A stretch of DNA of 64,000 nt, taken from a virus. The DNA is taken from positions 64,001-128,000 of IMG/VR virus record IMGVR_UViG_3300047160_005727. One strand, given 5' to 3'. Position numbers and translations under genes: made by a program. The notes beneath the pieces are model-generated. The model made no database searches. It saw only the letters and a program-made list of their open reading frames with translations, and was not told the origin of the DNA. This document shows, one piece after another, positions 32,584-48,643 of this stretch; position 1 is the stretch's first letter, and each line of letters begins with the position of its first letter.

Positions 32584-35016
32584 ATGGCCTCGATCAACCC
32601 GGACTGGTACGCCGGCAACGCGACCCGAGCCTATCCGCTCGATGACGCGGCGACCGCGCGCGACGATGCCGGGAAGGAGCTGCCGTCCCAGATCCTGGTC
32701 GACTGCCGGATCAAGTTCCCCTCGAACCTGGGGCAGTATGCCTACGTCAGTGGCGTGACCGTCAGCCCGAACCTCGTCACGGTCATCATGTTGGCAACCT
32801 CCAATGCGGTTCGTATGCCCGGAGGTATACAACCCGTCAGCGCGCCTGACCAACCTCTGTGTGCTGTCTCACTGCCGATGCCGGTCGTACCCTACCGTCA
32901 CTATCCGATCCAGCCGATGGCCGATGGCGTGGGAGGCTGGCTGGTATTCGGCCGCGGGATCGATGAGTCCTATTCGGGTCGGTTCAGTACGCCCGGGCAG
33001 ACGATCTTGCTGCCACGCGTGGCTTCGGCCTACGATCCGCTGCCGATCCCGACCCTGGGCAAGCTCGGTGTGGATCCACCCCTGACTGGCGTGATCCAAC
33101 TGCTGGGAGCTACCGATCTGGAGGTAGTGCAGGACACCCGCGAGATCCCCATCAACGGCACGCCGGTCATCGTCGACGCCATCATCATCCGCCTGGTCGA
33201 CAGCTTGAACCGCAACGTCTTCAGCCTTTACACAGGTCCGTGCGGCGGCCGGCCCGAAAGCGACTCCTGCAACAAGCCGGCGGTCGAGTCGATCAACGGC
33301 GTCGTGCCTGACTGCGACGGCAACCTGACCATCAACTTCCAGGGTGTGAACGTCTACGACTATCTCAACGGCGGCGGGCAAGCTCTGGATCTTCCGCTGG
33401 GCATGGCCGAGGTCTGTCTGGGCCAGGACTATCTGCCCGACAAGGATGGGAACCTGCCCAGTGACTTTCCTGGCGACTGCCAGCCTGGGCCGCAGGGGCC
33501 GCAAGCACCGCCCGGTGGTGAGACGCCGCCTATTGTTCTGCCGCCGGGCTGCTTCCCGATCCCGTTCTGCGAGAGCTTCGACGAGCCCACGGTGCCGACG
33601 ACATGGGTCGTGCCATTTGGCCCGTTCAACCTGGACGCTGACGACTCGCCGGTCGAGCCCTGCGGTCTGACGTCTCCGGGTGGTACACCGATCAACCAGA
33701 GCTACGCCACCACACCAACACAGCTGAATGCGTCGGTCTGGAACTGCGTCTACAGCGTGCGGCCTGACAGTACATCGCCCTTGCGCTGCACGGTGCACCT
33801 CAAGCTGATGCCCGGTACCAATGTCAACGGCGGCATCATCTGGAACTACTTTCTGGCTGATCCCTGGGAAACTCCCCCGTCAATGACCTTCCTGTGGGTC
33901 GGGATCGATATGAGCCGGAACGCCCTGGGGATCGGCATCTTTAACGGCACCACTGTAGTGATGTCCGAGTGGGTCACGTTCCCGACAGGCAACGTGCCCA
34001 AGGTCGGCGAATGGTACGAGCTGAGTGTCTATGCTCTCGCTGATCCTGAGTTCTGGGCCCCACCCTACAACCTGTACCAGCAGTACATCACCCTGAGCGG
34101 GGTCACGGATACGGCGTTCCAGAAGATGACGCCGATGTTCAAGTTCGCGATGAACTCTTACGGCGGACTGGCCGGAGTCGGAGCGAACAACGCGCATACC
34201 CGGTTCAGCTGGTTCAAGCTCGAGTACATCGACGCACCGCTGGGCTGTGTTCCGCTGCCTTACTACGACACTTTCGACGGCACGATCCCGACAGCATGGA
34301 TAGCTGAGTTCGGAACCTGGGTGGTCGAGAACGATGACTCGCCGGACGAGCTTTACGGACTGAGCGCTCCAGGATCCGGCGTACCGCCGGGTGTGCAGGC
34401 CGGCTTCATCGAGACACCGCCGTTCCATCGTGGGGCCAGGACCGAGGCAACACCCGCTACCGTCCCCATCAACCGGAGCTATACCGCCATCGATCAGTCG
34501 ATGCGCAACGTGTCGATATGGGACTGCGGGTACGACTGCCGGGACGGGCTGTTCATATCGACCGCTTTCAAGATGATGCCTGGCAGCCAGATCAATGGTG
34601 GCATTGTCTTCAACTGGCTCGACAACAACCCGGACTTCAAGCGGCCGACCTACATGATGGCCACACTGGACCTCACCGGTAACCGCATAGGGATCTATTA
34701 CTACTACGGTGCTACGGCCACGATGAGCGAGTGGGTGAACCTGGAGAGCAACGTGCCCAAGGCTGGCGAGTGGTACCACATGAAGGTCCAGCTCTACCCC
34801 GACGCCGCGAATGGCGGCGCGCCCTTCTGGCTGTACCACGTCATCGTGACCGTTACTGGCGTTACGGATACAGCCTTCAAGGCGGTGTCGACTGACTTCC
34901 CGCAGGACCTTGCCTATCCCGGCAGTAAGGTCGGCCTCGGGACGACCTACGGTCATACCCGGTTCAGCTGGTTCCGGGTGGCGAGTACTGACGAACCACC
35001 ACCGGGGACACCCTAA
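32584..35016 (+). CDS. Cys-rich virion protein, paralog 3, with two tandem ConA-like domains (candidate receptor-binding protein)
   Basis: DWYAGNATRAYPL; ESINGVVPDCDGNL; a duplicated domain ending HTRFSWF at 33550-34224 and 34246-34983. Confidence 0.7.
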   Translation: MASINPDWYAGNATRAYPLDDAATARDDAGKELPSQILVDCRIKFPSNLGQYAYVSGVTVSPNLVTVIMLATSNAVRMPGGIQPVSAPDQPLCAVSLPMPVVPYRHYPIQPMADGVGGWLVFGRGIDESYSGRFSTPGQTILLPRVASAYDPLPIPTLGKLGVDPPLTGVIQLLGATDLEVVQDTREIPINGTPVIVDAIIIRLVDSLNRNVFSLYTGPCGGRPESDSCNKPAVESINGVVPDCDGNLTINFQGVNVYDYLNGGGQALDLPLGMAEVCLGQDYLPDKDGNLPSDFPGDCQPGPQGPQAPPGGETPPIVLPPGCFPIPFCESFDEPTVPTTWVVPFGPFNLDADDSPVEPCGLTSPGGTPINQSYATTPTQLNASVWNCVYSVRPDSTSPLRCTVHLKLMPGTNVNGGIIWNYFLADPWETPPSMTFLWVGIDMSRNALGIGIFNGTTVVMSEWVTFPTGNVPKVGEWYELSVYALADPEFWAPPYNLYQQYITLSGVTDTAFQKMTPMFKFAMNSYGGLAGVGANNAHTRFSWFKLEYIDAPLGCVPLPYYDTFDGTIPTAWIAEFGTWVVENDDSPDELYGLSAPGSGVPPGVQAGFIETPPFHRGARTEATPATVPINRSYTAIDQSMRNVSIWDCGYDCRDGLFISTAFKMMPGSQINGGIVFNWLDNNPDFKRPTYMMATLDLTGNRIGIYYYYGATATMSEWVNLESNVPKAGEWYHMKVQLYPDAANGGAPFWLYHVIVTVTGVTDTAFKAVSTDFPQDLAYPGSKVGLGTTYGHTRFSWFRVASTDEPPPGTP

Positions 35017-35789: not shown

Positions 35790-37242
35790 ATGCCGCTACC
35801 AGGGTTTTACAATGACAACGGAGCGCGGTCCTACCCGCTGGTGCCGTGGTCCAATGCGCTTCTGGGTGTGCCGGTGGTACCGCTTGCAACGCAGATCAGC
35901 AACTGGAACGCCACCAACGTGACTGTTACCCCAGGGCAGTGGGAAACCGAGAGCGGTGCAGGACGGGGCGGCGGTTACTGGCTGAGTACGTCGCCGTCGA
36001 CAGGCGGATCAGGGAGCGTCATCTGGCAGTTCGCTGTGGTTCCAGGCCGGCAGTACCAGGTCGCGGCGACATGGCCTGGCGACCCGAAGCAGGCGAGTAA
36101 CGCCCGCTTCACCATCATGGAGACCGAGGGCGAGGGCCAGGGCTACTTCCCGCTGGCGGAAGTTCGAGTTGACCAGCGGGTCGTACCGTCCCAGATCACG
36201 GATGCTGACAACGTCGGCTGGCTTGTCCTGGGGAACGTCACACCGATCCGCACCACCCTGCTCGTCGCCGTCAACGACGACTCCGACTTCCCGGCAGTGG
36301 GCGATGCGGTCTGGGTCGAGGACATCACGCCGCCCGATCTCTCTACCCCGGTCATGATCATGCCGCCCATGAGCACCCTGCTCGACTTTGGCTGCATGGT
36401 CGGTCTTGACGCCGAGTTTGATAGTAGCATGCATGTAGTATATCTGCATGGTATCATGCGTATCGGTGACAGGTTCTGGTTCGACTTCCGCTCGGATGCT
36501 CCTGGGCTACTGGGTCATGCATTGATATTCACCCGTACACTAGGTGACGTCGAATACACGACCGACTACGTCGAGGCGTCGCCGCTGAGTGCCCCAGCAG
36601 AGCCTTTGGATGCCCCGCAGGGCTCCCAGGGTTTGCTCTGGCAAGGCTTCCTGGTTACCGGCCTATTGGACGACCTTGCGGCCGTGATGCCCACAGACGG
36701 GGCTATGACAGCCACCACAGGCCCGCAAGTCGAGCCGGCACTGGTTCAGAACCTGGGACGTAGCTACGTCCGGACGATCAACCTGGCGAACCAGGACCGC
36801 ACCCATGCAACACCCCCGGCTGGCTGCCCCGGCAGCGACGACACAGGTGCCGACTACCCCTACGTCATCGCCGCTACCAACCTGACGGGTGATCTCCGGT
36901 TCCGGGAGGGCTACAACGTCGCGATCCGGCAGAGCGCGCGGAACAACTCCCTGACCTTCCTGTCGGTCCAAGGCGCTGGCGCTGGCGCCCCCTGCAATGA
37001 AGTGCCGGTCTATCCCGGCGAGCAGCCCCCGAGCGACAGCAGCCTGCTCACGGGCGGGCCAGCCTGCGACGAGGTTGTCAACAGCATCAACGGGCTGGCG
37101 TCCAACCTGATCTACCTCGCGGCCGGGCTAGGTGTGCTGATCACTATCCCGTCTGACGCCGCGAACACGCTCACGGTCGACATGAACCGCCACGACATGA
37201 CGGTCTGCGGCCCAGTCCAGGTTGTATTCGAGGAGCTGCCTG

Positions 37243-37250
<8 letters not shown>
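35790..37250 (+). CDS. Virion protein, paralog 5, with inserted golvesin/xanthan-lyase C-terminal-like beta-sandwich domain
   Basis: [13 protein letters not shown]; VNSING; inserted domain [20 protein letters not shown]...VDQR...GWLVLG...GDAVWVE at ~35934-36320. Confidence 0.65.
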
Positions 37251-38270
<1,020 letters not shown>

Positions 38271-38274
<4 letters not shown>

Positions 38275-38300
38275 AGATCTGGTAGAAGCATGTCATACAT
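38271..38300 (+). promoter_or_regulatory. Putative promoter, copy 1 (CTGAA-N16-GTCATACA)
   Basis: Motif shared with 40650, 41677 and 52802; followed by a hairpin at 38301-38328. Confidence 0.6.
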
Positions 38301-38395
38301 CGGTAGAGGCCGTCCCCGGCCTTTACTGACCGATCCACAAAGGAGACTGACCATGGACGACCCTCATGGGATGATGTCCATCAGCAACCGGGAGG

Positions 38396-38944
38396 ATGCC
38401 GATGGCGAAACCCAGACCGACCATTGCTGACCTGCCTTTCAAGCGCATGTCCAGATACGACCACGACCAGTGGCGTCTGAGACGCATTCACGTGGCCGAT
38501 ACGTATACCTTGTTCGAGATGCTACTCCTCGGGATCTGTCTTCTCGAAGACAAGATCAAGAGCGGTAGAGGTATCAGCATACGTTCAGTTTATCGCTTGG
38601 CCAACGTGCTTCGCATGCTGGACTACGTTACTGGTTGGCCCAGTGGTAGGCTCAGCCGCCGGTACCGCCGGCGCGCTGAGAAGATCATCGACGGAGCACT
38701 GTTTGGAGATCTTGTTACGAAAGGAAACAGAGTTACAGTGAGAAAACACTACCGCAACGGTAACCCGATCGGCTTGATCCATTGCGGTTGTGATGACTGC
38801 AACCCGAGCATGATCAACGGGAAGCTCAGCCACGAGCGTGGCTGCCGCGATGCCTGGCGGGACTACAAGCGCAAGTGCACTGTTTGCAGGGCGGAATTCT
38901 ATCCGCCTGATCAGGACGAAAGAAACTGTCATCGACATCGTTGA
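38396..38944 (+). CDS. Hypothetical Cys/His-rich protein
   Basis: 182 aa; CDDC...INGKLSHERGC and CTVC...C motifs. Confidence 0.6.
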   Translation: MPMAKPRPTIADLPFKRMSRYDHDQWRLRRIHVADTYTLFEMLLLGICLLEDKIKSGRGISIRSVYRLANVLRMLDYVTGWPSGRLSRRYRRRAEKIIDGALFGDLVTKGNRVTVRKHYRNGNPIGLIHCGCDDCNPSMINGKLSHERGCRDAWRDYKRKCTVCRAEFYPPDQDERNCHRHR

Positions 38945-38949
38945 ATGCT

Positions 38950-38981
38950 GGTCGTCCCGTGTGGGGCGGCCTTTCTTTTTT
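38950..38981 (+). terminator. Intrinsic terminator
   Basis: GGTCGTCCC-GTGT-GGGGCGGCC followed by TTTCTTTTTT. Confidence 0.75.
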
Positions 38982-38996
38982 AACTAAGGAGTGCGT

Positions 38997-39476
38997 ATGG
39001 CGAAACGCAGAAAAGTTCCGGAGGAACCCGTCGAAGATGTGAAGGAACGCATCGAAGTATTGTTCAGCGTCGAGGTAAAGAAGAACTTCTGGACGGGGAG
39101 ATACCCCAAGTCGGAATACATCTACGCTGTTCAAGATGGTTGCGGAGGGACTTTCGACTTCGAGAAGAAGATATTCGTGCCGCCAAAGGAAGAGCCAGCA
39201 CTAGGGCCCTGTGAGCCGAAGAAGAAACTTCTGCCACAGAAACCGTTTGCTGAACCGATAAGCCTGAAGGATCGTGTGCAATGGGGAGGCACGATAACCC
39301 GGTCTGCGACCATCTTTTTTGTGGGTTATGCCAACCGGCTCTACACTTTCAAACTCTACAGCGTCGCGCAGGCTGTGGAAGTCATGTGCCGCACAATGGT
39401 CTGTGGCTATCCAGACGGAGTGCCTCCCGACATTTACGGCGACGGTCTCGGTAATATCCACGTCAGCTCTAACTAA
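38997..39476 (+). CDS. Hypothetical protein
   Basis: 159 aa, SD AAGGAG, bracketed by similar terminators. Confidence 0.65.
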   Translation: MAKRRKVPEEPVEDVKERIEVLFSVEVKKNFWTGRYPKSEYIYAVQDGCGGTFDFEKKIFVPPKEEPALGPCEPKKKLLPQKPFAEPISLKDRVQWGGTITRSATIFFVGYANRLYTFKLYSVAQAVEVMCRTMVCGYPDGVPPDIYGDGLGNIHVSSN

Positions 39477-39478
39477 GT

Positions 39479-39520
39479 GGGTGGTCGCCCCGCGAGGGGC
39501 GGCCACTTCCCCTTTTTCTT
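39479..39520 (+). terminator. Intrinsic terminator
   Basis: GGGTGGTCGCCCC-GCGA-GGGGCGGCCACTT followed by a T-rich tail. Confidence 0.75.
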
Positions 39521-39536
39521 AGGCTATAGGACTGTC

Positions 39537-39767
39537 ATGAAAGACATGAATGGTAATTCATCCCGGGACCAGCACTGCTTCTGGTTGTTCCTGCTGCACT
39601 TCATCGTCGGCGCCAGCAGCTTTGGCTTCTGGTGTGACTCTCCTACCGATGTCAACCTCTGCTGGATGATCTACTGCAATGTGATGGCGATCATGATCCT
39701 CATCTACCAGGCGGTGTCGCGTGCCGCGGCAAAGCGACAGGCGAAAGAAGACGAAGCCTTCTTCTGA
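39537..39767 (+). CDS. Small two-TM membrane protein
   Basis: Two hydrophobic stretches (CFWLFLLHFIVGA; LCWMIYCNVMAIMILIY). Confidence 0.5.
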   Translation: MKDMNGNSSRDQHCFWLFLLHFIVGASSFGFWCDSPTDVNLCWMIYCNVMAIMILIYQAVSRAAAKRQAKEDEAFF

Positions 39768-39782
39768 GCCGGCTCGTCCGCT

Positions 39783-40337
39783 ATGCTGACAGGCGGAAAT
39801 ACTGGCATGGAGGACCACAGGATGCGCGCCAAGACAGCTGACACGAAAGATATCACCGAAGTCGCGGTTTCCCACGATACCACCACGGTCATCAGCGCCT
39901 CGGGTATACGCTCGATCACACTTGTGCCCACGTTCCAGCGCGGCTACGTGCCCAATGTGATCGACGGCTTCCGGTTCACGCTCCAGGTCACTGGGGCGAT
40001 CCAGATGCCGACCAAGATCTTCCGCTACCGGCTCGTGCCCACCCAGGTGAAAGCCACCACCAGCGAGCCGCCGACCGCCGTCGAACTCAAGGGTGCGTTT
40101 GATGGCGTCTGTAGCCCGGCCGATCTCGAGGACTTCCCCGAGGACTGGCCGGCCCAGAATGCCCGGCCGTCCTGGTACCGGCTCGACATGGTGGATCTCA
40201 TCGTGCGCAGCCGATCGATCGCCGACGAAGCATACAAGGCGATCATCTACGAGATCGAGCGGCTGATCGATACGCTCAACACCATGGATCAACAGGATGT
40301 AGCAGCCACGATCACCATCGGACCGGAGGTACCATGA
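39783..40337 (+). CDS. Hypothetical protein
   Basis: Strong GC3 bias; overlaps the next start (ATGA). The true start may be downstream. Confidence 0.65.
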   Translation: MLTGGNTGMEDHRMRAKTADTKDITEVAVSHDTTTVISASGIRSITLVPTFQRGYVPNVIDGFRFTLQVTGAIQMPTKIFRYRLVPTQVKATTSEPPTAVELKGAFDGVCSPADLEDFPEDWPAQNARPSWYRLDMVDLIVRSRSIADEAYKAIIYEIERLIDTLNTMDQQDVAATITIGPEVP

Positions 40338-40645
40338 TCGCCAGCAATACGCTGCGTAACATTATCACGATCGAGAACAGCACGATCGACGCCCTGGTCG
40401 TCAACGTGGCGTTCCAGCGTGAGTTTCCCTTCCTGGCTGGCCTGGTTCAGCCCAAGAAGACCAGTCGCTGCGGGCGTTGCCGCAAGAAGCAGCGGGCAAC
40501 CCTGACCGAATACCGGAATTTCAAGAACGCCGTGGCGTCCATGATCCCCCAGGACAAGATACGCTTCAAGCAATTCATGGGCTGCAAACAGGTTAGGGTA
40601 GTTCACGTCAACCCCGCCAACAAGGTCGTCGACCGGACTTTCTAG
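40334..40645 (+). CDS. Small basic CxxC protein
   Basis: 103 aa; RCGRCRKK; SD GGAGG. Confidence 0.65.
   Translation: MIASNTLRNIITIENSTIDALVVNVAFQREFPFLAGLVQPKKTSRCGRCRKKQRATLTEYRNFKNAVASMIPQDKIRFKQFMGCKQVRVVHVNPANKVVDRTF
40346..40360. promoter_or_regulatory. 15-bp palindromic site, copy 4 (AATACGCTGCGTAAC)
   Basis: Exact reverse complement of copy 1; 12 nt after ATG 40334. Confidence 0.6.
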
Positions 40646-40649
40646 CACC

Positions 40650-40680
40650 CTAAACTGCGTCCGCGTTCATGTCATACATC
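40650..40680 (+). promoter_or_regulatory. Putative promoter, copy 2 (CTAAA-N16-GTCATACA)
   Basis: Shares CATGTCATACATC exactly with copy 1; followed by a hairpin. Confidence 0.65.
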
Positions 40681-40821
40681 ATTGGAGCCACTTAGGTGGC
40701 GATCCATCGGCCCGTGCGTTAGAGTACGGAAGCTACCATGAGGTCCGGGCCGGAACGAAGCACGTTGCTACACGGGTATCACTAGGTACCCGACCCCGTG
40801 GCTGCGGCCACGGGTGTTTTT
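40681..40821 (+). ncRNA. Candidate ~140-nt structured small RNA or attenuating leader
   Basis: Lies between the promoter motif and a terminator, has no substantial ORF, and contains several consecutive hairpins. Confidence 0.55.
40795..40821 (+). terminator. Intrinsic terminator
   Basis: CCCGTGGC-TGCG-GCCACGGG followed by TGTTTTT. Confidence 0.75.
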
Positions 40822-40908
40822 ACTGTGCAGTTGCGCAGGAAGCGCTCGTGCCGGGACCTCGTCGTGTTCGAGACGGGTTCTATCCAGTTTTTAGCATGGA
40901 GCATCTGC

Positions 40909-41604
40909 ATGAAGCGACGTTTCTTCTGCACTGCGCTGGCGATGTTGGCCGCGACTGTCATCGGCATGGGATCGGTGCAAGCCGGTACCGTTGTCATGAC
41001 GGACTCGGGCAACATCGGCCAGTTCAGGGCAACCAACATGGGAGTGAGTGGGGGGACGGCAACGGTCGTCTTTGATATCCCCAACTTCACCTCCCAGTTG
41101 AACACGGTCAACGGGTTGTTCCTGGCAACACCCGAGCAGACCGCTGTTCCTGGGCCGGTCACACTGCTCGTGACCTCGACAGGGCCGGAGACCTACAACC
41201 TCAGCCTTGTGCCCTCGACGTATGAGCAGACGATCGGAGCGACCCCTGCGACCCAGGCCATTCTGGACTTCACCCTTACCAAGGGTGTAGCTCCGGATGT
41301 GTTGCCCAACTTTTTCAACATGTCAGGGGCTATCACAAGTCTGGTCACCAACAGCAACCCCAACCTCGACTTCTCGAAGTTCGAGCCGGGCGGGTTCCAG
41401 AATGTCACCCTGACCGCCACGTCGTTCCAGAACGCGGCGAGCTTCGCGGGTTTCCTTGCCACTCCTGGCGCTGTCGCTGTGGGGAACGGCTCGTTCAGCC
41501 AGTCGGCTGTGCCCGAACCGGCCTCAGCGGCCTTGTTGGGTATTGGCCTCAGCGGGATATTCGCATTGCAGCGACTGTTCCGTAGATCAGCTTGCAAGGC
41601 GTAG
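40909..41604 (+). CDS. PEP-CTERM sorting-domain surface protein
   Basis: Signal peptide MKRRFFCTALAMLAATVIGMGSVQA, a Ser/Thr/Asn-rich body, and C-terminal VPEPASAALLGIGLSGIFALQRLFRR. Confidence 0.92.
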   Translation: MKRRFFCTALAMLAATVIGMGSVQAGTVVMTDSGNIGQFRATNMGVSGGTATVVFDIPNFTSQLNTVNGLFLATPEQTAVPGPVTLLVTSTGPETYNLSLVPSTYEQTIGATPATQAILDFTLTKGVAPDVLPNFFNMSGAITSLVTNSNPNLDFSKFEPGGFQNVTLTATSFQNAASFAGFLATPGAVAVGNGSFSQSAVPEPASAALLGIGLSGIFALQRLFRRSACKA

Positions 41605-41633
41605 GGTTATCGCTAGTCACGGTAACCTCACTG

Positions 41634-41671
41634 AGCAGCCCGGTCTGGCTTCGGTCAGGCCGGGCTGTTTT
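41634..41671 (+). terminator. Intrinsic terminator
   Basis: AGCAGCCCGGTCTGGC-TTCG-GTCAGGCCGGGCTGTT followed by a T run. Confidence 0.85.
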
Positions 41672-41676
41672 ATGCG

Positions 41677-41707
41677 CTAAACTTCGGGCCTTTTCTGGTC
41701 ATATACA
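41677..41707 (+). promoter_or_regulatory. Putative promoter, copy 3 (CTAAA-N16-GTCATATA)
   Basis: Directly after the terminator; followed by a hairpin at ~41709-41737. Confidence 0.6.
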
Positions 41708-41767
41708 AGTGGACCCCGCCTATGTCGGGCGGGCCACGTTGTAAGACCGATACGGAGATCCGGACAA

Positions 41768-42075
41768 TGATGGAGTATCACTGTCTGAACGTCAGCAAGG
41801 ACGTCTACAAGCTCGAACTGTTACCCAGAGGTTGCGGCCTCTGTGAACGGTGCGGTGATCAGGAGGCTGAACGCCATGTTCAGTCAGTGATCGCCGGCGA
41901 GCAGTTTGATGAGCAGCTCTGCGACATGTGCGCAGATAAGGCCATCAAATGGAAGCCGGAGGTTGAACCGGTTCCACGGCAACGACCAGCTGCGACCAAC
42001 GTCTCCTCCCGTGTTCTCGAACGGGCAAGACGTACCGCAGACTACCGTGGTTCCTGGCGAAGCCTCGTCCGCTGA
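41768..42075 (+). CDS. Small zinc-finger protein
   Basis: CGLCERC...LCDMC motifs; start uncertain. Confidence 0.5.
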
Positions 42076-42314
42076 CCGACCCACGCGGCCGTCCGCGCCG
42101 TAGCTCACTAGCACCTTGTCTGGTGCGTGGTGCGCGCTGGCGGCTCGCGTTCCTTCCGCATACCGACCAAGAGTGACAAGACAACCCCGAGCCAGGGGCC
42201 GTCACTCCTCACTCCTTCTTGGTCGGTCGGTAGTGCAGTTTCAGAGTGACGGTCCCGAACTTCAAAGACCGACCAGTTCGTTTTGTTTTTTCTCAACCGA
42301 AAGGAAGACCGACC
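42076..42314 (+). ncRNA. Candidate structured leader/attenuator RNA
   Basis: 13-bp stem 42195-42207/42244-42256, terminator-like hairpin 42256-42291 and alternative 11-bp pairing 42162-42172/42217-42227. Confidence 0.5.
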
Positions 42315-43583
42315 ATGCCTCGCAGTTTCAATAAGTCCGGTTCGAGTTCCAAGTCCGCTTCTTCAGCACAGGAAAGACCGACCATGCCTACCAAAGGCAA
42401 AGCCGCCCCAGCCGGCAACAAAGCTGGGAAAACCGCATCGGCCGGCAAGTCCGAGAAACGCAGCAACGGTAAGGCCGCCCAGGCCGCTTCAGTCAAAGAC
42501 TCGAAGCAAAAGGGACGCATCACAAAGGGCAAGCCGGCTACCGGCGCGCCCGCTCCGGAGCAGAACGTCAACCCGACGCCTGTTCCGGATCCGGTCGTCA
42601 ACCAGACGGCCGCCCCGGAAGCCACACCGCCTGGCGATGTGGCACCTCCGGTTGAAACGCCTCCGGTGGAGGCCCCGGTTGAGGTGCCGGTTGAAACACC
42701 TCCGGTTGGAGAGCCTGTAGTCCCGACCAACGTGGACATCAAGCTCGAAGAGGTCGTCGAGGTGCCGGTCGATCCCGTCGTGATCGCGGAGCAGACCGAG
42801 GAGGAGAAGATCGCGGCAGCGGCTGACAACGTCAAGAAGACGCGTCAGCAGGCTGCGGAAGCCAAGCGGCAGGCCAAGGAGTCCGTGAAGGCCGAACGTG
42901 CTGCCAGGTTGTCCCTCGCGGGTCTCGACCCGAAGAACTGGGATGCCGATGGCACCTTCGCCCGGAACGGCAAGAAGTTCCTGGCCGGCATGATCGGCCT
43001 GGTTCGGCTTGCCGCCGAGGGGCTCTGGAAGTTCCTGGTCTTCGGCTGGGAGCGGTTCATCGGCCTGTTCGGGAAGTACCGGTGGATGGGCTATGCCGGT
43101 GTGGGTGTGGGTAGCGTCATGGCGACGGCCCTGCTGGTGTACAGCGTCATGTGGATGTACAGCCCGTACGTCCGGACCACTGAACCAGTATTCGTGGCTG
43201 ACGAGCTGTCGAACGTCCCGCCCACCAAACTGAACATCCAGGCGGGCAACCCGGATAGCATCCCCAACGGCCAGGTCCGTGAGGAAGTCATCCGGCTCGA
43301 TGGTAACTCCAAGGCCATGATGACAGCTGTCCGCGAAACGGGCACGCTGATCAGTCACACCAAGGGTGCGGCCATGTGGGTTGAGCAAGCAGGGAACGGT
43401 GATGTCTACGTTCACCTGCGGTCTCTGTCTTGGGAAAGCCATGTGCTGACCCCGGGCAAGAACCAGTTGCTCAATGCCGCCCAGACGAGCAACGGGCGGT
43501 TCAATGCCAAGTTGATCAAGGTCAACGATGCATTGAATAGCAGTGAGAGTTTCAGCTCTGGCGCGTACGTCGCCAACCGCTGA
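42315..43583 (+). CDS. Membrane protein with Lys/Ala-rich and Pro/Glu/Val-rich N-terminal regions
   Basis: SD AAAGGA, with a second in-frame ATG at 42384. Coiled coil, then TM segment GYAGVGVGSVMATALLVYSVMWMY. Confidence 0.75.
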   Translation: MPRSFNKSGSSSKSASSAQERPTMPTKGKAAPAGNKAGKTASAGKSEKRSNGKAAQAASVKDSKQKGRITKGKPATGAPAPEQNVNPTPVPDPVVNQTAAPEATPPGDVAPPVETPPVEAPVEVPVETPPVGEPVVPTNVDIKLEEVVEVPVDPVVIAEQTEEEKIAAAADNVKKTRQQAAEAKRQAKESVKAERAARLSLAGLDPKNWDADGTFARNGKKFLAGMIGLVRLAAEGLWKFLVFGWERFIGLFGKYRWMGYAGVGVGSVMATALLVYSVMWMYSPYVRTTEPVFVADELSNVPPTKLNIQAGNPDSIPNGQVREEVIRLDGNSKAMMTAVRETGTLISHTKGAAMWVEQAGNGDVYVHLRSLSWESHVLTPGKNQLLNAAQTSNGRFNAKLIKVNDALNSSESFSSGAYVANR

Positions 43584-43599
43584 GCTAGGTCAAGGCCCT

Positions 43600-43647
43600 G
43601 GACGGACGGTGGCTGCGCAAGCAGCTGCCGTCCGTTCCTTTCTTTTA
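43600..43647 (+). terminator. Intrinsic terminator (GCAA loop)
   Basis: GGACGGTGGCTGC-GCAA-GCAGCTGCCGTCC followed by TTTCTTTTA. Confidence 0.8.
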
Positions 43648-43665
43648 CGCATCGGGTGACCTAGC

Positions 43666-43968
43666 ATGAAAACTCAATTGGAAAAGGATGCACAGCTGGG
43701 TCGGGTGACACGCGTCGTGCTGTTCTGGCTCGGCATCATTATCGTGCTCATCTCGATCTATCCCAGCTTCGTGCTTTGCAGGACGCTGTGGTATCTGGCC
43801 TACGACTATCTCGGTTACGGCGGTTTGATCGCCTTGGTGATCGGCGCTGTGATCGTGTTTCTCGCAGGCTGTGCTGGTGCAAGTTTTGTCGGCCGGACGT
43901 GGTGGCTGGCAGGTTTAGGCGAGCGTGCTCTGAATGGTGACGAGCATGCCGACGCAACCAAGGAGTAG
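43666..43968 (+). CDS. Small membrane protein
   Basis: 100 aa with two long hydrophobic segments. Confidence 0.6.
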   Translation: MKTQLEKDAQLGRVTRVVLFWLGIIIVLISIYPSFVLCRTLWYLAYDYLGYGGLIALVIGAVIVFLAGCAGASFVGRTWWLAGLGERALNGDEHADATKE

Positions 43969-43970
43969 CA

Positions 43971-44321
43971 ATGGACGATCAGGTCAGTCGGCTCATTCAC
44001 AAGTTCAACCTCCGACATGAGGTCGAGGAGTTTGTCCGCCGACGGGCGGTCGAGCTGAGTGAGCAGAAGACGCCGTTTCGCTTCGAGGGTTCGGGTAAGC
44101 GGTGCGGCTCGAAGGAGCCGCATGCCCCGCACATCTCGGGTGAACCGTACAGCACGGTGCGCTACGGCATGCTTCAGACGTTCTGCCGGGGTGTATCCGG
44201 CGAGGGCATGGAGATCATTTCCGATCTCAACCATGTAGGAAGTGCTGAGTCACCTGCACGGTTTCACGGGCATTTCATCGGTACGGCAAAGGTTTCAGAG
44301 CCTGCTGCCGATCCGGCTTGA
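43971..44321 (+). CDS. Hypothetical protein
   Basis: 116 aa, SD AAGGAG; C...H.PH...C motif. Confidence 0.6.
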   Translation: MDDQVSRLIHKFNLRHEVEEFVRRRAVELSEQKTPFRFEGSGKRCGSKEPHAPHISGEPYSTVRYGMLQTFCRGVSGEGMEIISDLNHVGSAESPARFHGHFIGTAKVSEPAADPA

Positions 44322-44342
44322 CAAGGTCAACCCACAGTTCCG

Positions 44343-44391
44343 GGGACGGTGGCCGCGCAAGCGGTCATCGTCCCATCTCACTTTCTTTTAT
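44343..44391 (+). terminator. Hairpin/terminator (GCAA loop), paralog of 43600
   Basis: GGGACGGTGGCCGC-GCAA-GCGGTCATCGTCCC, then CTTTCTTTTA. Confidence 0.65.
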
Positions 44392-44440
44392 GCCTCGAAT
44401 GACCGACCAAACAGACCGACCAACCACAGGAAACACGCAG

Positions 44441-44755
44441 ATGAAAGACTGGTTCGTTCGTGAGATCAAGCGTACGGCGAAGGGTTTTGTTCGCTTCGTA
44501 GCGCAGACGGCGGCTGCCCTTCTGTTCGGCATCGTCGTCGCAGTTGTCCTTCACTTCACTGGGATCTATAAAGCTGGTGCCAGTGTTAAACCACTACCGG
44601 CCGAGATCGAGACAGTGCATCGGCCAGCTCCCGAAAAGGTGCCGATGAACAAGTGGTCAGAAGAGGAGCGTATGCTTGTAAGAGCGTATATCGAGAAGCA
44701 TGGAATGGATGCGACGATCAAGGCGCTGCAAGAACATCGAAGTCTGTCACAATAA
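44441..44755 (+). CDS. Small single-TM protein
   Basis: 104 aa; AAALLFGIVVAVVLHF. Confidence 0.6.
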   Translation: MKDWFVREIKRTAKGFVRFVAQTAAALLFGIVVAVVLHFTGIYKAGASVKPLPAEIETVHRPAPEKVPMNKWSEEERMLVRAYIEKHGMDATIKALQEHRSLSQ

Positions 44756-44775
44756 CCCCGACGCGTTCGGGGTCG

Positions 44776-44855
44776 GAGCGAGTCGCTCCATGGGTACTAT
44801 CTTCCGGGTGCATCCCAAAGCATCCAACAGATGGTACTCATGGAGCGGCTCGCTC
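44776..44855 (+). other. Long intergenic RNA hairpin (27-bp stem)
   Basis: 44776-44802 pairs with 44829-44855; the only non-Watson-Crick pairs are three G-U. Confidence 0.7.
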
Positions 44856-44982
44856 ATCTTCTTCAGCTGACTGCCATTTGTTTTAGCTCTTAGTTTTATC
44901 TATCAGCCATGGTTGATCGTCGCACGCCCGCCATGTAGGATGGCCCCGGAGGAACCGGACAACCAACCAACAGGAGCTAGAC

Positions 44983-45267
44983 ATGGCGCTGGAGCTTGTA
45001 GATCAGCCAGAGGGTACCAAGGTCACCGTCAACGGCCCGAAGGCCACGGTAACCATCCAGGGAGACACGCCGGCCTCGGTGGGCAACACGGAGGCCAAGC
45101 AGATGGCGCTCAACGCGGCGCGGCCATTCCTCAGCAAGCCCGGCATCTCGAGTGTGAGCGGGCCTTATCCGGTGGATGCGGATGGCAACCAGCTCGAAGA
45201 CCCAACCAAGCCACGTCCCGAGGGTTTCCGGTTCCGTCAAGACTTCACGATACAGGAGGGAATGTGA
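44983..45267 (+). CDS. Hypothetical protein
   Basis: 94 aa, SD AGGAG. Confidence 0.7.
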   Translation: MALELVDQPEGTKVTVNGPKATVTIQGDTPASVGNTEAKQMALNAARPFLSKPGISSVSGPYPVDADGNQLEDPTKPRPEGFRFRQDFTIQEGM

Positions 45268-45800
45268 CAGCAAAGGTTCATGCCAGTCTCACCAAGTCAG
45301 AGGTGCAAGCGATCTTCCAGCTTGTCATCAAGTACAAGCAGCCGCCAGACCTGGAGGCAGAGCTATCTACGGCCGAGGCCCTTCTTCTTGTGGCGGCTGA
45401 TCTCCTCAAGACCTACGGCTTCGATCCCGCGTACGTGCTGACAGTTGCGAGCCGGCTGTGGAGCTGGCTCGGAGCCGACGATCGCCAGGTTCTGATGATC
45501 AACATCGTCGACCGCCGCTACGTCGGCTGGAACCCTGGCCCCATCTCCTTGACCGACATGATAACCGGCGGCGAGGTCGGTCCCGAGCAAGCGCTGTCCA
45601 GCCGTGTGCTGGAGTCAGTCTGTTACAACATCTACGAGCTGCTCGATCGTCGCAAGGCGATGGCCCGCGGCGAGCGGGGGTCGCTCTGGGAGGGTAAGGA
45701 TGCCGCAGGTAAAGCCACATGTGGTGCGCCGGGCGGAGGTAGCGCCGACCTGGGAGAACCCCAAGTCGTTTGCGACGACCTTGGTGCACCTATTCCATGA
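45264..45800 (+). CDS. Hypothetical protein
   Basis: GTG start overlapping the upstream stop, SD AGGAGG; 178 aa. Confidence 0.6.
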   Translation: MTAKVHASLTKSEVQAIFQLVIKYKQPPDLEAELSTAEALLLVAADLLKTYGFDPAYVLTVASRLWSWLGADDRQVLMINIVDRRYVGWNPGPISLTDMITGGEVGPEQALSSRVLESVCYNIYELLDRRKAMARGERGSLWEGKDAAGKATCGAPGGGSADLGEPQVVCDDLGAPIP

Positions 45801-46428
45801 CGAGTATTACGATCCCAAAGATCCGCCAAGGGAGAGCTGCTACACATGGCACCCAGGGACGATCCTGCTCGAGATCCGCGACGACTTCGGCGTCGAGCTG
45901 CCACCGGCCAATTTCGCCCGGCTCATGGCGGGGATCCACCTGCTCACATCGGACGCCTTCTACAAGAGCGTTCCCACCTTCATCGAGATCTGCAACGTCC
46001 TCTCTGGTGGGATCTACGACCCGGCCACCTGGGATCCCGCCGATGCTCTGGAATGTGCCTGGGGTATCACGGAGGCGATGCTGCTAGCGCCGCCCGACGA
46101 TGACGATGAAGAACCTTTTTCTGAAGAGATCCGCGCTTACATCGGCGCGGCACTGGACGAGGAGGGTATACTCGACCCACCAGACGTGCTTCGGATCGCG
46201 ATCCGAGGTGACGGTCATCGCTCGGCTGCCCAGGTCTCGTCGCAGTTCGACGACCACGAGACCCGGACATCCATTGCACAGACGGAGGCTGCGAAGGTCG
46301 CTGAGATCAACGGTCACATCAAGTCGAACCTGCGGATGCTGACTGCACAGCTGGCAGCGTTGCACCTGGCTCATGGCGATGCCGGGGCGCTGGCAGGCAA
46401 ACTCGCCCGTACATTGGGCAAGGAGTGA
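45700..46428 (+). CDS. Hypothetical protein
   Basis: 242 aa with strong codon bias; overlaps the upstream gene by 101 nt. Confidence 0.7.
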   Translation: MPQVKPHVVRRAEVAPTWENPKSFATTLVHLFHDEYYDPKDPPRESCYTWHPGTILLEIRDDFGVELPPANFARLMAGIHLLTSDAFYKSVPTFIEICNVLSGGIYDPATWDPADALECAWGITEAMLLAPPDDDDEEPFSEEIRAYIGAALDEEGILDPPDVLRIAIRGDGHRSAAQVSSQFDDHETRTSIAQTEAAKVAEINGHIKSNLRMLTAQLAALHLAHGDAGALAGKLARTLGKE

Positions 46429-46431
46429 GAG

Positions 46432-46815
46432 ATGCCACTTACGAACCAGAAGCTGGCGGTAGCCAAGCAATGGGTGGTCTCGAAGCAGGGCAAGTTTGCC
46501 ACCGTCGGTGGCGGGCTCGGCATCAGACCCAAGATCTACGACAACGCGGCTGCCGCCCAGTACGCCATCCAGACCAACCCCAGGCTCCGGGGTGGGGTCG
46601 TGGTCCCCTACACGATGGAGTCCAAGGCTGCTTTCGATGCCGAAGCCAACAAGGTCAACGCGGCTGCTGCGAAGACCCCCGGCAAGGCACCTGGGCCTAG
46701 CCAGGCGACGCCTGGCGTGTTCGCTACCACTACCAAGTCCAAGGCAGTGAAACCCAAGGCGACGGCTGCACCTGTCGCTCCGGGTAAACGTGCTGCCGCT
46801 GGCAAAGTAAAATGA
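46432..46815 (+). CDS. Basic Lys/Ala-rich protein (histone-like tail)
   Basis: C-terminus TTKSKAVKPKATAAPVAPGKRAAAGKVK; SD AAGGAG. Confidence 0.65.
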   Translation: MPLTNQKLAVAKQWVVSKQGKFATVGGGLGIRPKIYDNAAAAQYAIQTNPRLRGGVVVPYTMESKAAFDAEANKVNAAAAKTPGKAPGPSQATPGVFATTTKSKAVKPKATAAPVAPGKRAAAGKVK

Positions 46816-46834
46816 AAGACCCACCGGGGTCGCT

Positions 46835-46874
46835 ACGCCCGCCGCGCGGCACGCCCCGTGGTGGGCGTTGTTTT
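46835..46874 (+). terminator. Probable intrinsic terminator
   Basis: ACGCCCGCCGCG...CGTGGTGGGCGT followed by TGTTTT. Confidence 0.5.
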
Positions 46875-46912
46875 GCGCAGCTATTCTGATGGCATAGCCA
46901 AACGAGGACCAA

Positions 46913-48643
46913 ATGCCCGCAGCTAACCAGAACCCACAGCCACCCAAGGTCAACCCGGACTTCGAGAGGCGCGCTCAGATCCTCTGGGGTTCAAGCCAAA
47001 GCGCGGTGTCCGTCCGGACTACCGAGGATGGCCGGTTCATCCGCGACATCCAGACAGTCATGTCGAAGATCGCCCCTGACTGTGCAACCGTGATCTGGGA
47101 CAGAGCCCGCGGCTTCAACTGGGACCGCATCGACGAGCATACCCACGTCAAGAAGCCACTACCGTTCGGTAATGGTTCAGACTACACCAACATGCTGGTA
47201 GCCCTGGAGGCTGTTGCCAAGCTGGAGTCGGGGAAGATGCGGAAGGGAGTGTTCGTCTTCCTGGATCCGCACGACGTCTTCGATGACCTGACCGAAGGCC
47301 CGGCCTGCCGGCGGGTCGTCAAGACGATGATCAACGATCTACAGCTCTGCACACCCAAGAACGACGACACTGGCGATCCAGGGCACCGGCGTCAGATCAT
47401 CTTCGTGTCACCGGTGCCGATCCACCGAGAGCTGCACGAGTACGTCGTGCCGCTCGACTACCCTCGTCCCACCGAGGAAGAGCACGAAGAGACGGTCAAG
47501 GTCGTCGAGAGCGGTACCTCCGGCAAGAAGTGCTCAGACGAGATCCGGGAAGCCCTTGCTGCAATAGGCATCGGCCTGACCTGGATCCAGTTCGAGAACG
47601 CCGTGGCCGAGGCCACTCACGCGCACAAGGGCTTCGAGCCCGCTGTGCTGGATACGGTCGAGCAGAAGAAGGCTGACCTGATCGCCCAGCAGGGCTTTCT
47701 TACCTACGTCCCGTTCAACCGGCTACCCAAGGATGGCGAGGTTCGCGGCTTCGAGGAAGTCCATGAGTTCCTGGCCATGCAGGCCCAGTCCTACAAACAG
47801 GAAGTCATGGGCCTGGACAGGCCCAAGGGCATGCTGCTCATGGGAGTGGCCGGCACCGGCAAGAGCATGATGGGCAAGCTGGCTGCCCGCATCTTCTACA
47901 ACGCAACCGGCAAGCGGTTTCCGGTCTACCTGCTCAACGTGCCGGCTCTGTTCGGCGGCATCGTGGGCCAGACCGAGGCCAATGTCCGCTGGGTCACCGA
48001 GACCCTGAGTGCTCAGGGCCACTACCTGCTGGTGATCGATGAGCTGGAGAAGATGCTTGCGACTGGCGGCTACAACGGCGACTCGGGTGTCTCGCTGAGA
48101 GCGGTCGGCCAGATCCTGTCGTGGCTGTCCGAGCGGGTCAACAACCCGAACGACAAGGGCTACATCATCGGTACCCTGAACACGATCGAGGGCATCAGGC
48201 CGGAGTTCTTCCGCCGGTTCGACGCCGCCTTCTACACCGATCTACCTTACCCTGAGATCCGCAAGGAGATCATCACCAGCCACTTCCAGCGGCGTGGTGT
48301 GAACGTCGCCAAGCTGGTTGGTGCGGATGGCACGCCACTGACTGGCGATGACTGGGACGCGCTCATTACCGGCACCGAGAACTTCATCGGCTCCGAGCTG
48401 GAGGATGTCGTCACCCAGTCGCGGGCGCTGGCTGCTTACAAGCGCGGCGTCTCCGTACCGATCTTCGAGGAGATCGAGCAGACGGTCAGGAACCGGGCTC
48501 AGAACATCGTGGCCAAGACCCACAAGCACGATGTGGACTCCGTTCGTGACTACTGCAAGTCGTCAGCCCGCCCTGTCTACGTCCAGAAGGTGACCGCGAA
48601 CAAGATCGCCAAGCGGTCGCGCCAGGTAAACACTGGAGAGTGA
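46913..48643 (+). CDS. AAA+ ATPase, Ycf46-like
   Basis: Degenerate N-terminal domain (VRTTEDGR, FVFLDPH), Walker A GVAGTGKS, Walker B LLVIDELEK, DSGVS, and RPEFFRRFD. Confidence 0.9.
   Translation: MPAANQNPQPPKVNPDFERRAQILWGSSQSAVSVRTTEDGRFIRDIQTVMSKIAPDCATVIWDRARGFNWDRIDEHTHVKKPLPFGNGSDYTNMLVALEAVAKLESGKMRKGVFVFLDPHDVFDDLTEGPACRRVVKTMINDLQLCTPKNDDTGDPGHRRQIIFVSPVPIHRELHEYVVPLDYPRPTEEEHEETVKVVESGTSGKKCSDEIREALAAIGIGLTWIQFENAVAEATHAHKGFEPAVLDTVEQKKADLIAQQGFLTYVPFNRLPKDGEVRGFEEVHEFLAMQAQSYKQEVMGLDRPKGMLLMGVAGTGKSMMGKLAARIFYNATGKRFPVYLLNVPALFGGIVGQTEANVRWVTETLSAQGHYLLVIDELEKMLATGGYNGDSGVSLRAVGQILSWLSERVNNPNDKGYIIGTLNTIEGIRPEFFRRFDAAFYTDLPYPEIRKEIITSHFQRRGVNVAKLVGADGTPLTGDDWDALITGTENFIGSELEDVVTQSRALAAYKRGVSVPIFEEIEQTVRNRAQNIVAKTHKHDVDSVRDYCKSSARPVYVQKVTANKIAKRSRQVNTGE

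Follow-up and report, generated by a model that had tools for sequence, protein, structure and literature searches.

In the 240-nt spacer 42076-42314 of a large phage genome, comparative analysis identifies a conserved, strand-specific RNA hairpin with a loop sequence that co-evolves with short boxes located at or near ribosome binding sites (RBSs). We consider it on balance probable that the element represents a new leader-RNA family in which pairing of the loop with the RBS would control translation of the downstream membrane-protein gene, an upstream box acting as competitor. To date the RNA family, previously uncatalogued, is known from a single clade of large, uncultured phages of myovirus-like type. 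For this element, transcription, transcript ends and processing (if any) are predictions from the nucleotide sequence.

The window, that is the whole 64,000-nt stretch of DNA analysed, corresponds to bases 64001-128000 of a 141-kb IMG/VR virus record from a myovirus-like phage (completeness estimate ~68%), and it encodes tail-sheath and baseplate genes. The spacer lies in a zone of small gene cassettes with intrinsic terminators between them, flanked by a Zn-ribbon ORF on one side and an orphan membrane-protein gene on the other. The Zn-ribbon ORF, the spacer and the membrane-protein gene probably form one unit, started by a promoter-like motif at 41677, as judged from the following features.
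41677..41708, + strand: promoter-like motif CTAAA-N16-GTCATATA (pattern scan; putative function).
41767..42075, + strand: Zn-ribbon ORF of 102 aa with the pattern CxxCxxC...CxxC; TGA stop at 42073-42075.
42315..43583, + strand: membrane-protein gene; the product (422 or 399 aa) has an N-terminus rich in K/A/P, TM segments and a C-terminal domain.
43600..43647, + strand: canonical intrinsic terminator at the end of the unit, a 17-bp stem followed by CTTTCTTTTA (terminator scan).

The pattern scan located the promoter-like motif at the orthologous site in all seven related phages described below. As this conserved motif is upstream of the Zn-ribbon ORF, the element is probably intercistronic in this phage and not a strict 5' leader; the term leader, used in the initial annotation, applies literally to two relatives, in which the element is a true 5' UTR. 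The Zn-ribbon ORF gave a weak, sub-threshold match to DUF7685. It is present between the promoter-like motif and the hairpin in six of the eight phages, is highly divergent among them (24-45% identity), and was not detected in the element's unit of L036 and L038.

In its general form CTRAA-N16/17-GTCATAYA, the motif has about 4-8 copies in a genome, all of them on the + strand and most with a hairpin after them; its positions are orthologous in 8/8 phages. The sites recorded were as follows.
Window, + strand: 41677, 38271, 40650 and 52802.
Relatives, + strand: L005 5107; L006 2795; L036 6441; L038 5260.
Further relatives, + strand: L040 4823; L037 4751; L041 5030.

Outside the window, at G000 32650-34100 (L043 12650-14100), three extra promoter-like motifs precede about 650 nt with terminators and no obvious ORF; the covariance model of the hairpin (R1, below) does not match this region. 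In L035 an rve-family transposase gene (783-1316) occupies the place that the variable cassette takes up in the other phages, ahead of two conserved genes (94 aa and 185 aa). The phage of the window is a recurrent environmental phage: at least nine contigs (including L030, L031 and L032), drawn from several samples of ENA and JGI, carry it with an identical Zn-ribbon protein, and it occurs in ENA ERZ27255420, ERZ27255807 and ERZ272572xx and in JGI 3300031545. The spacer is identical in three other contigs of it, which add no variation.

The spacer and its immediate flanks contain the following features.
42074..42081, + strand: GACCGACC, a copy of the box that shares bases with the TGA stop of the Zn-ribbon ORF.
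42083..42150, + strand: hairpin U, a long imperfect hairpin directly 3' of the Zn-ribbon ORF (MFE and centroid fold).
42162..42172, + strand: upstream box ACCGACCAAGA, an 11-nt perfect Watson-Crick complement of the loop of hairpin A.
42195..42256, + strand: hairpin A, the conserved element, with a 13-bp stem and a 36-nt loop (folding; covariance model R1).
42211..42219, + strand: CU tract ACTCCTTCT, adjoining the anti-box (invariant columns of alignments A4 and A5).
42217..42231, + strand: anti-box TCTTGGTCGGTCGGT in the loop of hairpin A, the sole copy of this orientation in the region.
42256..42295, + strand: weak, terminator-like 6-bp hairpin (arms 42256-42261 and 42275-42280) and T tract (42281-42295).
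42267-42275, 42307-42315 and 42376-42384, + strand: GACCGACCA boxes of 9 nt each, perfect complements.
42300..42317, + strand: first RBS module, with the Shine-Dalgarno (SD) sequence AAAGGAAG, the box 42307-42315 and the ATG at 42315.
42370..42386, + strand: second RBS module, with the SD AGGAAAG, the box 42376-42384 and the ATG at 42384, in frame and 69 nt downstream of the first.

Stem A is formed by GGGGCCGTCACTC (42195-42207) and GAGTGACGGTCCC (42244-42256) through 13 pairs, one of which is G·U. Its loop displays TTGGTCGGTCGGT, the complement of the single upstream box over 11 nt and of the three downstream GACCGACCA boxes, and in the isolated hairpin the core of the anti-box has a mean unpaired probability of 0.75. 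The strongest predicted partner of the loop is the upstream box (-25.1 kcal/mol). The downstream box 42267-42275 fills the 13-nt loop of the weak hairpin 42256-42280 and the first base of its 3' arm; TTTTGTTTTTT, with 10 T in 11 nt, comes next. This small hairpin was not called by the terminator scan because its loop exceeds 8 nt. The two RBS modules are part of a 31-nt duplication (42290-42320 and 42359-42389). The initial annotation, made from the sequence alone, had described stem A, the 11-nt upstream complement, the box within the terminator-like hairpin followed by the T tract, and the boxes between SD and ATG at 42307 and 42376, and all of these were located exactly where it had placed them. 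The multibranch fold that it had proposed for 42083-42150 was instead a single long imperfect hairpin, the hairpin U listed above, in both the MFE and the centroid structure.

A hairpin at the position of hairpin U, after the Zn-ribbon stop, is also present in L005 (5516-5585) and L006 (3235-3300); these two share the apical sequence TCTTCCGYCGCATGACGGRG, to which the window hairpin U is unrelated in sequence, and two G·U pairs in the L006 stem fit the + strand only.

The proposal of mutually exclusive pairings was substantiated by the energies of two alternative folds. Across 42155-42260, the upstream box and the adjacent GAGTGAC (42172-42178) compete with stem A: pairing them with the loop sequence and with GTCAC of stem A gave -37.6 kcal/mol, against -32.3 kcal/mol with stem A enforced. 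When the downstream flank was included the two states became nearly equal (-43.7 kcal/mol for the upstream-box fold and -43.2 kcal/mol for stem A). The weak hairpin forms in both states, as computed by nested folding.

Further copies of the box are found on either side of the unit.
38345-38355: box variant GACTGACCATG.
38415..38423, + strand: exact box copy, 19 nt inside ORF 38396-38944.
44401-44409 and 44414-44422, + strand: tandem box copies preceding a gene for a small TM protein, 5' of its SD and ATG (44441).

The predicted duplex of the loop with the tandem boxes 44401..44422 has an energy of -23.6 kcal/mol. Allowing at most one mismatch, AAGACCGACCA occurs eight times in the window against 1.26 expected, a count reached in none of 100 shuffles, and the six exact + strand copies of GACCGACCA in the 141-kb genome all fall within 38415-44422 of the window. 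The 266 nt of flanks around the hairpin contain four complementary sites of at least 8 nt; none of 1000 dinucleotide shuffles reached four. A genome-wide run-length scan for targets that allowed G·U pairs was too noisy and did not rank the local boxes at the top. A role of the box as a phage promoter was rejected, given that its copies cluster in one 6-kb region and are not spread genome-wide, that its sequence differs between close relatives and that two copies abut an ATG.

Two other sequence relationships were noted in this part of the genome. The + strand of ORF 35790-37250 contains, at 36397-36409, CATGGTCGGTCTT, a 13-nt perfect complement of AAGACCGACCATG, which is present in both RBS modules (42305-42317 and 42374-42386). 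About 0.004 matches of this kind are expected per genome, and no equivalent was seen in the L005 homologue; the site is either a second anti-box or a product of chance. In addition, two terminator-plus-spacer elements, 43604-43666 and 44344-44409, are ~80% identical (GGACGGTGGCYGCGCAAGC...CTTTCTTTTAYGC); the latter continues into the tandem boxes (44401 and 44414), and at the end of the former GACCTAGCATG forms a degenerate box placed on the start codon of the 43666 gene.

The putatively regulated gene has two in-frame ATGs, 42315 and 42384, that give products of 422 and 399 aa. The recorded 399-aa product starts at 42384, and the gene callers applied to other contigs of the same phage start at 42315. 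The homologue in L040 begins with MPTPKK and the second start of the window gives MPTKGK; judging from this resemblance, the first RBS module looks like a later duplication. No Pfam family matched the membrane protein, and it retrieved only itself among 5.8 billion proteins and in a tblastn search of phage records and IMG/VR; the protein atlas gave no usable lead, and blastn of 41000-44500 against plasmids found nothing. Weak homologues were seen in L005 and L006, and the genes of L040, L037 and L041 link to these only via one another. Directly downstream of the element, the gene encodes a TM protein in every case whose sequence was inspected.

Since the membrane protein itself yielded no relatives, conserved neighbouring genes were used to reach related phages. 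The AAA ATPase (46913-48643) led to two IMG/VR phages, L005 and L006. A profile of it gave two relatives only in IMG/VR and no match in genome contigs; two distant matches (28-32% identity) in metagenome contigs were left out. Homologues of the protein encoded by 45604-46428 number in the hundreds; L036, L037, L038, L040 and L041 were obtained from the contigs that carry them. The contigs L167, L168 and L035 lack the upstream region and were left out of the comparison of the element. The element was present in all seven related phage contigs, each of which has a G+C-rich stem, a CU tract and a single-copy short sequence in the loop that exactly complements the 2-4 direct boxes of the same phage. 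The CU tract CUCCUUCU, which together with the phage-specific anti-box of 9-12 nt that comes after it is carried by the apical loop and upper stem, is the best-conserved part, and its stretch CTCCTTCT is the one near-invariant sequence of the element (alignments A4 and A5); we take this stretch to resemble the anti-SD of the 16S rRNA 3' tail. A minus-strand ORF, 41945-42205, lies behind the SD-like complement of the CU tract and was discarded as an explanation, its spacing and the ORF itself being not conserved in L005 and L006.

A covariance model (R1) scored the window hairpin A at 43.3 bits (E 2e-6 to 6e-6) and found a single copy in every genome or locus, on the + strand without exception, with scores of 43-87 bits; G000, G001 and G002 were searched in full. 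It had no match in 669 kb of unrelated viral DNA containing the CU-tract 15-mer. A scan of IMG/VR with this 15-mer returned random matches, which served as a negative control: R1 rejected 80 of 80 such loci. RNAalifold recovered the stem, and both partners were changed in 7 of its 16 pairs. The model-fitted alignment, which leans towards the structure, has both-side changes at 10 of the 16 stem pairs, and 87% of its cells pair against 33-59% when the partners are slid. The covariation score was 0.44 against 0.26 in shuffles, of which none in 500 reached 0.44. The initial annotation had held that lack of conservation would speak against a switch; the element is kept in seven relatives, and its stem covaries.

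The stem includes 17 G·U cells, which would be C·A mismatches if read from the other strand, and the sole minus-strand match of R1, in L038, scored 22.7 bits against 74 bits. The G·U pairs that fit the + strand only and the weakness of this minus-strand match indicate that the structure is formed by an RNA with the same orientation as the genes. In the relatives the CU tract is paired inside the hairpin (unpaired probability 0.0-0.26), as is part of the anti-box (0.5-0.65). Binding of a target would therefore require opening of the upper stem, that is, strand invasion.

Rfam searches, which had been suggested at the outset, gave no known family: cmscan of 36000-48000 at E<=1 had no family match, and that of three leaders (G000 locus L002, L038 and L005) at E<=10 had none to the C4, CI and IsrK antisense RNA family. 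The sole weak match on hairpin A, to LhrC, is at chance level (21.7 bits against a threshold of 110; E 4.1). A metabolite-binding riboswitch was discarded, as there is no Rfam match and the CU tract is the only conserved sequence, the rest being variable.

The box has a different sequence in most of the lineages.
Window: GACCGACCA.
L005: ACCTCGACCA.
L006: CCCCAACAA.
L036: CCCCTAACCAA.
L038: CCCGACCAA.
L040: CCCCGACAC.
L037 and L041: CCCTGACCA.

Watson-Crick runs of 8 nt or more were counted between each anti-box and the flanks of the eight loci. In the resulting 8x8 matrix, which is essentially diagonal, an anti-box has 2-4 sites of 9-12 nt in its own flanks and mostly none in those of the other phages; off-diagonal matches occur between L037 and L041 and between the window and L038, the closest pairs. 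At each locus, 0-3 of 1000 dinucleotide shuffles reached the observed number of sites, and a second copy in the anti-orientation was found at none of the eight. Duplex energies barely separate own-phage pairs (diagonal mean -23.6 kcal/mol) from cross-phage pairs (-20.0 kcal/mol). As these energies and the G·U-allowing scan discriminate poorly, specificity rests on the exact Watson-Crick runs and on their clustering.

All boxes considered here are on the + strand. Downstream boxes occur in 8/8 loci, the first of them 10-24 nt 3' of the stem, and an upstream box of 10-11 nt is present in 5/8 loci, 10-22 nt before the stem. The position with respect to the start of the next gene varies: the window and L040 (AAGGAACCCGACAATG) have the box between SD and ATG, and it abuts the SD GGAG in L036 and L038 (…ACCAAGGAG…), for which the predicted duplexes span the box plus the SD (-28.6 and -29.4 kcal/mol). 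In L006 the box is 19 nt upstream of the start codon, and in L005, L037 and L041 the nearest box is 31-46 nt upstream of it, with the SD not covered. L006 has further boxes before four cassette genes. Its best distant site, 2.9 kb from the hairpin, forms 15 pairs including two G·U (-26.6 kcal/mol) and precedes the homologue of the window's membrane protein.

These observations suggest a mechanism in which the anti-box of the loop would pair with the RBS-proximal boxes, and also with the SD where box and SD are adjacent. Such pairing would occlude ribosome binding and keep the membrane protein off, and pairing with the upstream box would sequester the anti-box and relieve the block; in this phage the latter pairing would also compete with stem A. 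The hairpin RNA may well, in addition, act in trans on other mRNAs that bear boxes, in the way that P4 CI RNA and P1/P7 c4 RNA target sequences of their own operons. Trans action is suggested by the boxes that precede nearby genes, up to 2-3 kb away in two genomes, together with the phage-specific matching code; the distant boxes at 44401, 44414 and L006 6736 are compatible with it as possible trans targets. The initial annotation had offered an attenuator, a kissing loop or an anti-RBS switch as the means of controlling the membrane protein. The co-variation of loop and boxes across eight lineages favours the kissing and anti-RBS forms, and the attenuator is not conserved.

If the main function here were attenuation, kissing of the anti-box with the box in the weak hairpin 42256-42280, or its pairing with the upstream box, would decide read-through into the gene. 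The T tract after the small hairpin, the location of a box in its loop and first 3'-arm base, and the two near-isoenergetic folds of the region would suit this; U-rich stretches follow hairpin A in L038, L036 and L005 as well, and P4 CI RNA acts through antisense-dependent termination according to PMC4825925, citing Sabbattini 1995. Yet the small hairpin with its T tract around the box is absent in 7/7 relatives, and what is conserved across them is boxes at the RBS. It has 6 pairs only and a 13-nt loop, escapes the terminator scan, and forms in both nested states, so that the switch does not obviously control it. The terminator-like hairpin is confined to this phage, and attenuation is thus not the mechanism conserved in the family; control of termination is at most a local addition here, and as the main function it is distinctly unlikely.

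The boxes might alternatively be sites of a sequence-specific RNA- or DNA-binding protein, the Zn-ribbon protein being the candidate, with the inverted copy in the loop an extra site or decoy. The position of the very divergent Zn-ribbon gene in six of eight phages and the boxes before several cassette genes would fit such a protein, and translational repressors such as T4 RegA typically have target sites scattered near RBSs, as in a regulon; a change in protein specificity would also make direct and inverted copies co-vary. L036 and L038, however, carry the full element with no detectable Zn-ribbon gene in the unit, and an RNA-binding protein would not recognise the complement of its site. 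A DNA-binding protein, for its part, gives no reason for a single inverted copy placed beside a CU tract in a covarying, strand-specific hairpin in 8/8 lineages; the sites are not palindromic, and their location between SD and ATG in the window and L040 would be odd for an operator. We regard the protein reading as unlikely. It is very improbable that the repeats are non-regulatory, i.e. remnants of local duplication or boundaries of cassette exchange with an incidentally complementary loop. The cassette zone is indeed variable, L006 has extra genes between box copies, and the RBS module duplicated over 31 nt and the tandem copies (e.g. CCCCTAACCAAaCCCCTAACCAA) look recent, but the inverted copy has matched the direct ones across at least six box sequences and is always at the same place in the covarying hairpin. 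Deletion between the flanking direct copies would lose the hairpin, yet it is always retained.

Among known systems, the closest in layout is the CI RNA of P4, an antisense element in the untranslated leader of its own operon with targets both up- and downstream, as described in PMC4825925, which cites Sabbattini et al. 1995 (PMC176756). The order of upstream box, anti-box hairpin and downstream boxes matches the seqA-seqB-seqC order given there. There is no homology of sequence or structure, nor an Rfam match even at E<=10. P4 CI terminates transcription prematurely, whereas the conserved targets here are on or next to the RBS. P4 is moreover a satellite in which replication functions are regulated; the genomes described here are large and virus-like, and the genes concerned encode membrane proteins.

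In P1, one target of the c4 RNA overlaps the RBS of the first downstream gene, icd, and P1 and P7 differ by matched changes in the c4 RNA and its targets, which the phage-specific box/anti-box pairs parallel. The present element differs from c4 in having no match to the Rfam C4 family RF01695, one loop determinant and not two, and an adjoining conserved CU tract; for lysogeny control or an antirepressor gene there is no evidence here. Co-transcription of c4, the antisense RNA of the immI operon, with its targets is known from Citron & Schuster 1990 (PMID 1696181), in the form in which PMC8201110 cites that work. Two traits of the C4 family are found in the element: an antisense determinant embedded in the leader with same-strand targets upstream (5/8) and downstream (8/8), and related phages that differ by matched changes in RNA and target (the 8x8 matrix). 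IsrK of the Gifsy-1 prophage is a short leader RNA that acts on the read-through mRNA of the same promoter and changes the accessibility of a downstream RBS (PMC4825925), and it is a precedent for a leader element acting both in cis and in trans. It activates translation by opening a structure, whereas occlusion is the simpler reading here, and there is no homology. As membership of the Rfam families of C4, CI or IsrK was not found, the element is filed as a separate family that would work like those systems.

The C/U-rich loops of Listeria LhrC and staphylococcal RsaE pair with Shine-Dalgarno sequences. The likeness lies in the CU-rich, anti-SD-like tract in or beside the hairpin loop and in the predicted duplexes that cover the SD in L036 and L038; the differences are that the CU tract is here joined to a variable specificity sequence matching SD-side boxes, and that in the relatives it is mostly paired within the hairpin. 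Small membrane proteins are subject to post-transcriptional control in hok/sok type I toxin-antitoxin and holin-type systems. The downstream products here are likewise TM proteins (51, 84 and 340-490 aa), and the proposed RNA pairing is at the translation-initiation region; unlike in type I systems, the antisense element is on the same strand and transcript and is not a convergent or divergent gene. Across the sequences compared, the distinguishing feature of the element is the fusion of a conserved, anti-SD-like CU tract to a variable specificity sequence.

A more speculative extension, doubtful as it stands, is that of a trans-acting riboregulator with an address code, composed of a constant anti-SD-like part and a fast-diversifying 9-12-nt specificity sequence, that would turn a small membrane-protein regulon on or off. 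The code, divergent among co-circulating relatives, would then decide whose genes are silenced in co-infection or superinfection, and would constitute an RNA-based determinant of immunity or exclusion in this clade of large phages.

If loop-to-RBS control is correct, it adds a new family of structured RNAs to the short list of well-understood phage systems in which antisense control is embedded in a leader (P4 CI, P1/P7 c4 and IsrK), and would be the first such control in a clade of large uncultured soil phages. The at least six matched box/anti-box codes carried on one scaffold amount to a natural compensatory-mutation experiment, and the series of elements may supply orthogonal translational switches. 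For the phages themselves, the orphan membrane-protein targets hint at tight post-transcriptional control of potentially harmful products, with proteins for lysis timing, exclusion or remodelling of the host envelope as candidates, and would thereby offer a handle on their function.
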